From Amoebidium appalachense (taxonomy: Eukaryota; Protista; Ichthyosporea), in NCBI GenBank assembly GCA_963693365.1, contig CAVNZM010000008.1:9242818-9306817 (forward strand): 64,000 nucleotides of DNA, given 5' to 3'. Position numbers and translations under genes: made by a program. The notes beneath the pieces are model-generated. The model did not search any database, was not told the origin of the DNA, and saw only the letters and a program-made list of their open reading frames with translations. Below, piece by piece: positions 7,471 through 16,106 of this stretch (positions are counted from its first letter, which is position 1; every line of letters starts with the position of its first letter).

Positions 7471-9033
7471 ATGGCTCCAAGGTAGGTTTGCTAGTTAGAA
7501 CAGCGTTGTTAGGCTGGATATATCGTTGTTAGCCTGTTGTTAGAATGTGCTGTATGGTTGGATCCCTGGACAAGGAGGTTTTTATAGTTGGGGGCCTTCT
7601 TCAGATGTCCATGTCCAGGAGTCTTAAACAGCTGTGTCCGCTTGACTTGTTGATATGGGTGTTAGCCTATGATACATGTCGTTGGAATATGGTCGTGGTG
7701 TGAGTTTTGCATGCACTGGCAGTTTCTGTTGCTCGAACCCTTCTAAGACCCTCTCCCTCTCAGCTTGGTCACGAAGAACCGCAAGCTTCTCAAGTTTGTC
7801 GACCGCGCTCAGAAGCTCTGCAAGCCCAAGGATGTAAGTGTTGTGTATGCTTGTTCGGATCTGGGGCGTGTGTATTGTTGGCCACGTTGATGCCCTGGCT
7901 GTTGGTTTGAAAAATGAAGTTCTTACCTCAAGGAGGGAGTGGGCAGCTGTTAGAGACGGGGCATATTTTGGGAGAAAGCTAGTTAAAGAAGTGGCAAGAG
8001 CATGCTGGGAGCTGAAGCTGGAGGGAGGACAAAATCCAAGGGGAACAGACGGGTTTTCATTGTGTTATCAGTGGGGAGAGGATGTGATGCCTTTTTTAAT
8101 TCCTTGATACGAAACGGTAGCTCAGCAGGAAATGGGATGGGGGGTTTTGAGAGGGGGGGGGGGGGGGGGGAGGAGAGAGGTTGGGGCTATGGATTCTTCT
8201 TGCGTTCCTGCAGTTGATGTCAGGATGCCTGAAGCCATGGTCAAGATTTCACACTGAATGATAATGTTCCACGAAACCGAGATGTTGTACGGAGCAGAGT
8301 AGACAGGGGAGGGTAGGGAATTGAATATTATCCAGACCTCTGAACACATCTCGGTTAAGGTTGTGTAAGGGGAAAGGAACGTGGTGATAGTTACGTTTCT
8401 TTCGTTTTGTGGGGTTGGGGGTGAAGGGGGGGGGGGGGGGGGGGAGCAGGGCTCTTACATGGCTCTTGGTGTGTGTTCGTGTGTGTTTGGTGGTGGGGGG
8501 GGGAAAGGGGGGGGGCAGGTCAGTGGTTTTTTTATCACACGTATTGTTCACTGACAATGACCGGTGTAGGTTTTCTGGGTGGAGGGAACCGAGGAGGAAT
8601 ACAACAAGCTGTGCCAGGTGCTTGTAGATGCTGGCACCTTCACCAAGCTGAACGAGGCCAAGCGCCCCAACAGCTACCTGGCAAGGTCCGACCCCAAGGA
8701 TGTCGCGCGTGTCGAGAGCCGTACCTTCATCTGCACCACCTACAAGGGGGATGCGGGCCCGACAAACAACTGGCGTGACCCCGATGAGATGAAGGAGGAT
8801 CTTATGCCCCTGTTCGATGGATGCATGGCTGGCCGGACCATGTACGTTATCCCCTTCTCTATGGGGCCCGTTGGTTCACCCTACTCCAAGTACGGTGTGG
8901 AGATTACCGATTCTGCCTACGTCGTTGTGAACATGTACATCATGGCTCGTATCGGTATGTAACTTTGATACCACCTTGCCTAGTTTAGTCGACAAATGCT
9001 GCTATGAATTAGCCCACGCTGCCCCCCCTTCCC

Positions 9034-9070
<37 letters not shown>

Positions 9071-10864
9071 AACAAAAACAAAAACAAAGAAAACCAACAT
9101 CTGCCGGCCCATTTTTATCCTTCTACTGGTTTCCAAGAACATGTAATTCATGATGTTGGTTTGGGCTCTTCCCACTTCCCAACCTCCTTGGTGTCTCCCA
9201 CATTATGCTGTTCCCTCTGCTGGGGATAAGAAATGCTACAGCCCTCCCTTCTCCTGCCCCTCTGCCCTTCTGCCCTTCCCACGGCCACCACCCATCCCCT
9301 CCGTAATGATAGTTTCCTCCTCCCCCCCCCCCCCCCCCCCGCCTCCCCCTCCTTCCTCATTCCCCACCCGCAAAAATATCCCGCTCCCCAAAGCCCTTCT
9401 TACCCTTCCCCCCCCCCCCCCCCCTCCCCCGCCTCGTCCTTCCGCTTTCCGCTGTCGCCTTGCAGTGGTTAGCATGCAAGCTTGAATGTTGTTACAAAGG
9501 GATGGGTTATGATGCATTGTTGGTTGACTTCCTCTTTTCCTGCAGGCCAAAAGGTCCTCGACGTTGTTGGCAAGGGTGACTTCCTTGAGTGCTTGCACTC
9601 TGTGGGCGCACCCCTGCAGCCTGGCCAGAAGGATGTTCCTTGGCCATGCAACGAGAACAAGTACATCTGCCACTTCCCCGAGGACCCAGCTGTGTGGTCT
9701 TTCGGCAGCGGCTACGGCGGCAACGCTCTTCTGGGCAAGAAGTGCTACGCACTGCGCATTGCCTCCGTGCAGGGCCGTAAGGAGGGCTGGATGGCCGAGC
9801 ACTGCCTCATCCTCGGGCTGACATCGCCGGAGGGCAAGAAGCACTACGTGGCTGCCGGTTTCCCCAGCGCCTGCGGCAAGACCAACCTGGCCATGTTGGT
9901 GCCCACCTTGGCCGGCTGGACGGTCAAGTGTGTCGGTGACGACATTGCCTGGATGCACATCGGCAAGGACGGCAAGCTCCGTGCCATCAACCCCGAGGCC
10001 GGCTTCTTCGGTGTCGCCCCCGGCACCAACTACCATAGCAACCAGTCTGCCATGCGCACCATGGAGAGGAACTCCATCTTCACCAACGTGGCACTCACCC
10101 CCGACGGTGATGTGTGGTGGGAGGGTATGACCAAGGAGCCCCCCGCAGAGTGCATCGACTGGACCGGCCAGAAGTGGACTCCCGGCTGTGGTCGCCTGAC
10201 GTCGCATCCTAACTCCCGCTACACCACCCCTGCCTACCAGTGCCCTGTCATTGACGAGCAGTGGGAGGACCCCGAGGGTGTCCCCATCGACGCCATCATC
10301 TTTGGTGGCCGCCGCTCTGACACAGTCCCTCTCGTCACCCAGGCCTACGACTGGAACCACGGTTGCTTCCTTGGGTCCATTTGCTCGTCCGAGCAGACTG
10401 CTGCTGCCGAGGGCAAGGTCGGCACCCTCCGCATTGACCCCTTCGCCATGCTGCCCTTCTGTGGCTACAACATGGGCGACTACTTCCAGCACTGGATCGA
10501 CATGGGCAAGAAGCTCGCCAAGAACGCGCCCAAGATCTTCTACGTCAACTGGTTCCGCAAGGACGAGAACGGCAAGTTCATGTGGCCCGGCTTCGGTGAG
10601 AACTCCCGTGTGCTCAAGTGGGTGTGCGAGCGTGTGGAGGGTACCGGCAAAGCCAAGCGCACCCCACTCGGCTTCCTGCCTCCCGTTGACGGCATTGATG
10701 TGAGGTCACTCGACATCAGCCCGGCTACCATGGAGAAGCTCTTGGCCGTCGACCCCGAGCGCTCACTTCAGGACATTGCCCAGTTCCGTGAGCATCTGGA
10801 GCGGTTCTCTAAGCGCCTGCCCAAGGAGATTCTGCACGAGTTCACTGCCCAGCAGGAACGCCTA
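7471..10864 (+). other. PEPCK domain 1 (exons 1-3 plus 5' part of exon 4)
   Basis: Runs from [16 protein letters not shown] to [13 protein letters not shown] with the full motif set. Confidence 0.9.
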
Positions 10865-14652: not shown

Positions 14653-14689
<37 letters not shown>

Positions 14690-16106
14690 TGTCTGCCCGT
14701 CGAGCTTTTGGGCCTGGACCCCTGCGTATTTTTTCTGTAGCTAACGCCCGTGCTCTCTTCCAGGCTTCCCCGTGCTGAAGGCTCTGGGCGATGGTGAGTT
14801 CGTGCCCTGCCTGCACTCCGTTGGTGCCCCTCTGGCCCCCGGCCAGAAGGATGTGCCTTGGCCGTGCAATGCCACCAACAAGTACATCTGCCACTTTCCC
14901 GACGACCCCGTGCCATCCATCATGTCCTACGGCAGTGGCTACGGTGGCAACGCCCTGCTGGGCAAGAAGTGCTTTGCCCTGCGCATTGCGTCCGTGCAGG
15001 GCCGCAAGGAGGGCTGGATGGCCGAGCACTGTCTCATCCTGGGCCTCACGTCCCCCCAGGGCAAGACCCACTATGTGGCTGCCGGCTTCCCCAGCGCCTG
15101 CGGCAAGACCAACCTGGCCATGCTTATCCCTACCCTTACCGGCTGGAAGGTGCGCTGTGTCGGTGACGACATTGCCTGGATGCACATCGGCAAGGACGGC
15201 AAGCTCCATGCCATCAACCCCGAGGCCGGCTTCTTCGGTGTCGCCCCTGGCACCAACCAGCACAGCAACAAGTCCGCCATGCGCACCATGGAGAAGAACA
15301 CTATCTTCACCAACGTGGCCCTCACCCCCGACGGTGACGTGTGGTGGGAGGGTATGACCAAGGAGCCCCCCGCAGAGTGCATCGACTGGACCGGCCAGCA
15401 GTGGACTCCCGGCTGTGGTCGCCTGACCTCGCACCCCAACGCCCGCTACACCACCCCGGCCAAGCAGTGCCCTACCATCGATCCCAACTGGGAGAGCCCT
15501 GAGGGTGTTCCCATTGAAGCCATCATCTTCGGTGGTCGCCGCTCCACCACCATCCCCCTGGTCACTGAGGCCTTTGACTGGACCCACGGTGTGTACCTCG
15601 GCTCTGTGTGCTCCTCCGAGCAGACTGCCGCTGCCGCTGAAGCCAAGGTCGGCGCCCTCCGCATCGACCCCTTCGCGATGATCCCGTTCTGCGGCTACAA
15701 CATGGGCAACTACTTCCAGCACTGGCTCGATATGGGCAAGAAGCTGGGTGAGAACGCGCCCAAGATCTTCTATGTCAACTGGTTCCGCAAGGACGAGAAC
15801 GGCAAGTTCATGTGGCCAGGATATGGTGAGAACTCACGCGTGCTCAAGTGGGTGTGCGAGCGTGTGGAGGGTACCGGCCACGCTGTTGAGACCACCGTTG
15901 GCCGGGTGCCTGCTGCCTCAGACCTCGACGTGCGCGGTCTGGAGGGTGTTGATGCCGCCACGGTTGAGAAGCTGGTGGCGGTTGACAAGGCGGCGTACCT
16001 GAAGGATATCTCCCAGTTCAAGGAGCACTTTGCCACGTTCGGCGACAAGTGCCCCAAGGAACTCAAGGAGGTTCTGACCAAGATCGAGGCCGGCCTCAAC
16101 GCATAA
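7471..16106 (+). CDS. PCK: Triple-domain GTP-dependent phosphoenolpyruvate carboxykinase (three tandem PEPCK domains, ~1801 aa)
   Basis: Exons 7471-7481, 7764-7833, 8570-8954, 9546-11336, 12122-13927, 14764-16106. All are GT-AG with matching phases and total 5406 nt (1801 aa + stop). Each domain has DVARVE (R-loop), [28 protein letters not shown] (P-loop), [18 protein letters not shown](S/A)RY, DPFAM.PFCGYN and VNWFRKD..GKFMWPG(F/Y)GENSRVL. C/G-ending codon bias is strong. Confidence 0.93.
10889..13455 (+). other. PEPCK domain 2 (3' part of exon 4 plus 5' part of exon 5)
   Basis: Runs from [13 protein letters not shown] to [13 protein letters not shown] and is preceded by the in-frame linker HCAVTKIP (10865-10888). 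Confidence 0.9.
13480..16106 (+). other. PEPCK domain 3 (3' part of exon 5 plus exon 6)
   Basis: Runs from [13 protein letters not shown] to TKIEAGLNA* and is preceded by the in-frame linker HFAVTKIP (13456-13479). Confidence 0.9.
14256..14410. repeat. Second copy of the dispersed ~155-bp repeat, inside PEPCK intron 5
   Basis: Matches 4345-4500 in the same orientation with scattered substitutions and ends in a poly-C run. Confidence 0.8.

Follow-up and report, generated by a model that had tools for sequence, protein, structure and literature searches.

A gene for three chained, intact phosphoenolpyruvate carboxykinase units in Amoebidium appalachense, and its multi-unit relatives among eukaryotes

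Our analysis concerns a stretch of 64,000 nucleotides from the ichthyosporean Amoebidium appalachense (NCBI GenBank assembly GCA_963693365.1, contig CAVNZM010000008.1, positions 9,242,818 to 9,306,817 of the forward strand), which we call the window. At positions 7471 to 16106 of the window lies a gene that encodes three complete units of GTP-dependent phosphoenolpyruvate carboxykinase (GTP-PEPCK, EC 4.1.1.32), joined head to tail in a single protein. The enzyme is well known. Its chained architecture, of which our literature searches gave no description, is present in databases only as automatically named long models. A textbook single-unit enzyme is found as chains of two to eight units in several eukaryotic supergroups, and within this family the inner units are intact and the end units are often changed.

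The gene reads as one open frame without an internal stop, consisting of six exons separated by introns that all have GT-AG ends. The frame is 5406 nucleotides long and encodes 1801 amino acids plus the stop codon, with unit borders at residues 1–599, 600–1201 and 1202–1801 and a predicted mass of about 200 kDa for the triple chain. Its features are:

7279..7316, plus strand: promoter-like words CCAAT (7279) and TATATAA (7310), 155–190 nucleotides 5' of the ATG; putative promoter
7471..7481, plus strand: putative exon 1, 11 coding nucleotides, placed by the ATG and a GT donor
7764..7833, plus strand: exon 2, N-terminal helix of unit 1 (splice model, tblastn)
8570..8954, plus strand: exon 3, PEPCK_N of unit 1, ending at the phase-1 intron position common to the three units (Pfam)
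9546..11336, plus strand: exon 4, remainder of unit 1, junction 1 and the first 154 residues of unit 2 (Pfam, reads)
10865..10888, plus strand: junction 1, linker HCAVTKIP, leading from the last helix of unit 1 to the first helix of unit 2 (contigs of all four runs cross it)
11337..12121, plus strand: intron 4, 785 nucleotides, GT-AG, removed by splicing in runs X10 and X2
12122..13927, plus strand: exon 5, remainder of unit 2, junction 2 and the first 154 residues of unit 3 (Pfam)
13456..13479, plus strand: junction 2, linker HFAVTKIP, inside exon 5 (sequence)
14764..16106, plus strand: exon 6, remainder of unit 3 and the TAA stop (Pfam)
16406..16411, plus strand: AATAAA, possible polyadenylation signal (sequence)

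The Pfam families PEPCK_N (PF17297) and PEPCK_GTP (PF00821) score above the gathering threshold on exons 3 to 6, with three PEPCK_GTP stretches at E values of about 1e-170. Inside exon 4, and likewise inside exon 5, PEPCK_GTP is followed by PEPCK_N. Hence, both junctions lie inside exons. An initial annotation, made from the sequence alone, had claimed that exons 4 and 5 cross the domain borders uninterrupted within a protein of 1801 residues, and both the splice model and the Pfam matches bear this out. Its argument that unrelated flanking introns and diverged copies speak against read duplication holds as well. Introns 3, 4 and 5 occupy one homologous phase-1 position, once per unit; their longest shared match does not exceed 16 nucleotides (best E value 0.045), and the units differ from each other at 17–23% of their bases. 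Beyond the gene itself, tblastn found no PEPCK sequence in the 64-kb window.

The gene is transcribed and spliced across junction 1. To establish this we used contigs of four public runs from four studies, aligned to positions 10650–12300 (junction 1 and intron 4). Half or more of the region's words occur in 14 public runs, none of which is recorded as RNA. We nevertheless take X10 and X2 to be RNA, because intron 4 is spliced in both and their intron depth is low: contigs join over the intron with GT..AG ends at depths of 4157 (X10) and 1183 (X2), and the intron itself has depths of 124 and 20. Mismatch-free contigs cross junction 1 in these runs (X10, 10764–10920, depth 5092; X2, 10764–10961, depth 1549) at the depth of the adjoining unique exon, which provides the RNA-level check of the 10865–10888 junction that the initial annotation had proposed. 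Runs X1 and X5 have even, DNA-like intron cover and also bridge junction 1; either may be the source of the assembly. In all four runs the bridge is free of mismatches and stop codons. Runs X1, X5 and X2 show at least one further PEPCK-like copy outside the window: DNA depth is about double at 10874–10961, over the start of unit 2, and the extra copy has loose ends at 12142 and a different acceptor at the homologous intron, and is spliced in X2.

All three units are predicted to be active enzymes. We mapped 25 active-site positions by motif and give them in mammalian numbering; the numbering and the substrate and GTP roles follow the accessible part of PMC4631375. These positions are identical in the three units except for F530Y in unit 3, a variant common among single-unit homologues. 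The identical residues include R87, Y235, N403 and R405 (substrate), K244, H264, D311 and the P-loop G289-K290-T291, and the guanine pocket W516/F517/F525/F530/N533 is kept throughout, save for F530Y. We take K244, H264 and D311 to be the metal ligands. The residue table agrees with the earlier statement that the R-loop, GKK, AEH, P-loop, GDD, HPNxR and guanine-binding residues are kept in the three domains. From sequence, each unit is predicted to turn oxaloacetate and GTP into phosphoenolpyruvate, CO2 and GDP.

Pairwise identity between units is 75–82% for protein and 77–83% for DNA, with synonymous/non-synonymous differences of 191/214, 182/232 and 155/158. The synonymous divergence (dS) is 0.54–0.76, and the ratio of non-synonymous to synonymous divergence (dN/dS) is 0.23–0.27. 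A covalent three-unit PEPCK maintained by selection, as initially suggested, is supported at the DNA and RNA level by this ratio, which indicates purifying selection, by the intact residues and by the reads over junction 1. Silent sites are clustered by partner unit (p=0.003), a sign of gene conversion, and identical runs reach 134 nucleotides. Over their first 48 residues, units 2 and 3 share 55–67% identity with the post-junction units of chytrids and red algae, and 33–52% with the first units of those groups. Conversion probably homogenises the unit cores, and the unit ends keep their positional identity. The idea that individual units specialise in carboxylation or decarboxylation finds no support in this protein: the active sites have the same residues, with no relevant difference between the three units, and the units exchange sequence by gene conversion. 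We rejected such opposite-direction specialisation.

Chained PEPCKs also occur outside Amoebidium. Among 5408 candidate proteins of 1044–2980 amino acids we found 93 matches, of which 33 contain two to four PEPCK units. It is for this reason that we regard chaining as a family architecture rather than a one-off. Each of the remaining 60 carries a single PEPCK unit, in many cases fused to a second Pfam family. Some of the multi-unit proteins are encoded in genomes (Cladochytrium, Nowakowskiella, Porphyridium purpureum, Acanthamoeba), others in transcriptome open reading frames marked complete. The named sources are chytrids, Porphyridiales and amoebozoans:

Chytrids Cladochytrium (C. replicatum) and Nowakowskiella: three units
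Red algae Porphyridium purpureum, P. aerugineum and Timspurckia: three units
Amoebozoans Cavostelium, Phalansterium, Echinamoeba and the Vermamoeba cluster: four units
Amoebozoans Arcella and Soliformovum: three units
Acanthamoeba castellanii XP_004337195: two units
Thecamoeba, Pyxidicula and Paradermamoeba: partial multi-unit records

The longest chain (P0281, an ENA record of 4821 amino acids) has eight units, six of them intact inner units between changed end units. Its units 4 and 6 are 100% identical and its units 3 and 5 are 97% identical, so this chain either expanded recently or owes part of its length to the assembly. The core of the window protein is 70–76% identical to the chytrid core. 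No prokaryote is among the named multi-unit PEPCK proteins, and 117 of the best 120 of 8000 near-length matches are single units, mostly bacterial or unnamed. Among these matches, at 66–69% identity, are two single-unit genes of Creolimax with adjacent numbers (CFRG6364 and CFRG6365; P0294 and P0312), possibly a split array or a pre-fusion state. A search against 50% representatives helped little, since clustering hides multi-unit proteins beneath single-unit ones: only four of its 150 listed rows are junction-spanning fragments, and P0277 consists of two pieces of one unit. Two labels deserve caution. The four-unit proteins labelled Schistocerca gregaria (P0007/P0112, XP_049851204/3) group with amoebozoan units and likely stem from a contaminant or parasite scaffold, and the label of the Eutreptiella cluster is doubtful, since it groups with Thecamoeba-like units in the tree. 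In prokaryotes, GTP-PEPCK is recurrently fused to other enzymes, namely to GAPDH domains (PF00044/PF02800; most rows of P0037–P0047 and P0050–P0084; Aquiluna and other actinobacteria) and to an aminotransferase domain (PF00155).

What the chains share is the way in which units are joined. We compared 27 apparently complete proteins, one per 90% cluster and including the window protein, and left out partial records. Together they have 64 junctions, of which three could not be matched. The distance from the proline at the start of the last helix to the aromatic residue of the next first helix is 30–32 residues in 58 of the 61 measured junctions and 44–45 residues in the other three. We define the group by at least two units, a spacing of 30–32 residues and units that fall inside the multi-unit clade, and the window protein has all of these.

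Sequences beside junctions are also more similar than those at free ends. For seven proteins from the window, chytrids and red algae, compared in cross-lineage pairs only, identity on the N-side is 60% beside junctions versus 41% at free ends, and on the C-side 45% versus 32%. Residues found only at junctions occur on both sides. They include Leu38, Met39 and Asp41 in the second helix, about 35 residues away from the linker, which are present in 13, 13 and 14 of 14 post-junction units versus 0, 0 and 1 of 7 first units. An RL[HY][FC]A-like linker stretch is conserved in the three-unit group; the amoebozoan linker has a different sequence with the same spacing.

Intactness differs strongly with position in the chain. 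Scored at seven catalytic or metal positions in the same 27 proteins, all inner units are intact (37 of 37), and four-unit chains never have an intact unit at either end (22 of 22 changed). In two-unit chains the first unit is always changed and the last always intact (6 of 6 each). Three-unit chains are mixed: the first unit is intact in 5 of 9 and the last in 7 of 9, and in Porphyridium aerugineum unit 1 was changed separately. Nine of the 11 last units of four-unit chains carry H264R and keep the lysine and threonine of the P-loop, and gaps in the lid region are frequent there. No more than 5 of the 27 proteins are intact in every unit: that of the window, the two from chytrids, the one from P. 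purpureum, and P0016. The changed end units are likely to be catalytically dead, a judgement that remains indirect because some changes are conservative (K244R alone in Cavostelium).

Structure models agree with the picture of complete units connected by a short link. In a two-unit Cladochytrium model built from a 32-row alignment, both units fold as PEPCK with a mean predicted local confidence (pLDDT) of 88.9, and the best match is the Mycobacterium tuberculosis enzyme (template modelling score, TM, 0.97 to the target; root-mean-square deviation 1.4 Å). The exon-4 piece of the window protein is modelled confidently only in part (mean pLDDT 67), with low values for its orphaned half-domain and values of 78–89 at junction 1. 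In both models the linker is a loop of 6–8 residues between two helices, with 6 residues in the Cladochytrium model.

The chain is likely to have a single origin, with later losses. Our IQ-TREE analysis included 52 rows (33 units from multi-unit proteins and 19 singles) and left out the fast-evolving changed end units. All 33 multi-unit units fall into one starred clade of 36 rows. A starred subgroup of 18 rows contains the units of the window protein, chytrids and red algae, together with the two Creolimax genes and P0293. The three window units form a cluster of their own (100), which we attribute to gene conversion and not to history. FastTree places them beside Creolimax (0.93), a placement that IQ-TREE leaves open. 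The chain would have arisen once, by head-to-tail gene duplication followed by fusion, and its unit number would since have shifted (2, 3, 4, 8) through unequal crossover. The chained PEPCK of red algae may conceivably have been acquired by transfer.

How should such a chain be understood? We lean towards an uncleaved head-to-tail chain of active units, with probable contacts between neighbours. The three units would stay joined as a single chain of about 200 kDa and pack on their neighbours at a junction of fixed length. Its retention would be explained by contacts between the last helices of one unit and the first helices of the following one, through which a unit could stabilise or tune its neighbour. 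At the ends of amoebozoan-type chains, units would have turned into caps that are likely dead, with the window protein representing the all-intact form. Several of our own results weigh against this interpretation. Part of the similarity beside junctions could be due to the shared ancestry of a duplicated junction and not to an interface. The predicted TM-score (pTM) of the two-unit model is 0.62, so that a rigid orientation of one unit to the other is not predicted. Read support is confined to junction 1 and intron 4 and does not extend to junction 2. Single-unit genes (the two Creolimax genes and P0293) are nested within the multi-unit clade, and a tree that forces them out is not rejected (p-AU 0.165, with thin sampling of single-unit eukaryotes). 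Some lineages can therefore do without chaining, and a single origin with subsequent loss falls short of proof. Finally, no unit of the window protein stands out from the other two, an equivalence that suits dosage no less than coupling.

Dosage had been one of the reasons offered for the trimer in the initial annotation. The units would then be independent beads on an uncleaved string that triple the output per transcript, and the dead ends of relatives would be tolerated relics. The equivalence of the window units, with their shared active-site residues homogenised by conversion, suits this explanation, as do the lack of a fixed orientation in the model, the variable unit number (2 to 8), the near-identical inner units of P0281 and the single-unit genes in Creolimax. 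Against independent beads stand the fixed spacing (58 of 61 junctions) and the junction-only residues away from the linker. Dosage alone is also a poor match to the family, since chains of four units have held on to end units that have lost catalytic residues: changed units of about 600 amino acids, sharing substitutions such as H264R, persist across several lineages of amoebozoans. We consider it unlikely. Even less probable is a polyprotein, whose full-length translation product would be cleaved at the linkers to release ordinary monomers. Here the precedent is Euglena, where metabolic enzymes are made as polyproteins with conserved decapeptide linkers (according to the accessible part of PMC7729029), and the linker stretch conserved in the three-unit group might be seen as a counterpart. 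However, the Euglena precursors are cut inside the chloroplast after import (same partial source), whereas the PEPCK fold here starts within about five residues. As a short loop, the linker lies between two helices. Amoebozoans have retained its spacing but not its sequence, and cleavage would free changed end units as likely inactive proteins. An assembly artefact, or three adjoining genes misread as one, is very improbable. The extra PEPCK-like copy in the DNA runs could mean that the unit count at the locus was mis-assembled, and no single contig of the four runs, which were aligned to 10650–12300, covers the whole gene. Against this stand the base differences between units, the unrelated introns, the mismatch-free and stop-free bridge over junction 1 in 4 of 4 runs from four studies, and chytrid and red-algal records of three-unit proteins with the same junction.

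One could also go further than an uncleaved chain of contacting units. The chain might be a covalent mini-filament with allosteric coupling, from an old lineage common to amoebozoans, opisthokonts and Porphyridiales, whose amoebozoan-type ends act as pseudoenzyme sensors. This is possible but doubtful. One of the two halves of hexokinase I is regulatory and non-catalytic, as the PEPCK end units may be. The last units of amoebozoan-type chains keep the P-loop and most guanine-pocket residues, their metal ligands are replaced (H264R, K244 changed) and lid residues are often lost; under the mini-filament explanation, binding of GTP or GDP without turnover is therefore expected. Like the regulatory half of hexokinase I, such last units would govern the catalytic ones, here the inner units, and caps would have evolved more than once from the all-catalytic state that the window protein represents.

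Tandem copies of whole enzymes are not without parallel. Flagellar creatine kinase of sea urchins has three fused domains, and the mammalian hexokinases I and II consist of tandem copies. These resemble the PEPCK chain in their organisation; the folds are unrelated and the likeness is an analogy only. GTP-PEPCK itself is reportedly monomeric, as the title of one paper has it. Characterised enzymes (M. tuberculosis Pck, 4R43/4WOU; rat cytosolic PEPCK, 2QEW/3DT4) share with the window protein the two Pfam domains, the fold and the substrate, metal and GTP residues, but the 23 related PDB sequences consist without exception of one unit with 605–626 amino acids, in contrast to the 1801 amino acids of the three chained units. 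The multi-unit PEPCKs in databases have the same head-to-tail order, junction spacing and clade as the window protein, and bear automatic names only. Amoebozoan-type chains differ from it in their changed end units. The chloroplast PGK, RbcS and LHC polyproteins of Euglena, as far as the accessible part of PMC7729029 describes them, likewise carry tandem whole-protein copies in one reading frame. They are plastid-targeted and cleaved at decapeptide linkers, whereas the window protein, whose PEPCK fold begins at residue 4–7 of the modelled frame, has no plastid-type presequence before unit 1. Norcoclaurine synthase of Papaveraceae, to go by the title of PMC5171800, offers natural tandem fusions of a whole enzyme; this plant enzyme of secondary metabolism, in one family, is an unrelated protein. 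Euglena PEPCK is GTP-specific and cytosolic (PMC6630311, partial text). Multi-unit PEPCKs go unmentioned in the accessible parts of PMC6630311, PMC7729029 and PMC9512073. Full-text searching of the literature gave no description of one; subscription papers and supplements lie outside its scope, and a passing mention could escape it. The initial annotation knew of no described example, and within this scope the literature gave none; in the databases the architecture is not unique.

The rule of intact inner units and changed ends amounts to a natural series, from all-active to pseudoenzyme-capped chains. This series would permit direct tests of how tandem fusion leads to allosteric regulation in a core gluconeogenic enzyme, and Acanthamoeba, Porphyridium and Vermamoeba are culturable models. 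For annotators, the message is that these long PEPCK models are real and should not be split.

A Pfam scan of 56 open reading frames of the window gave four above-cutoff matches in three frames, none with a link to the PEPCK gene. These exons encode a protein-tyrosine phosphatase (36504–37127, plus strand), a UBA-like domain protein (39209–39937, plus strand) and an Atg3/Atg10-type autophagy protein (53813–54634, minus strand). Long poly-C/poly-G tracts and CA-rich repeats occur in introns and intergenic DNA, for example at 9020–9060, 14655–14690 and 16460–17500, and around these repeats the GC skew alternates strongly.

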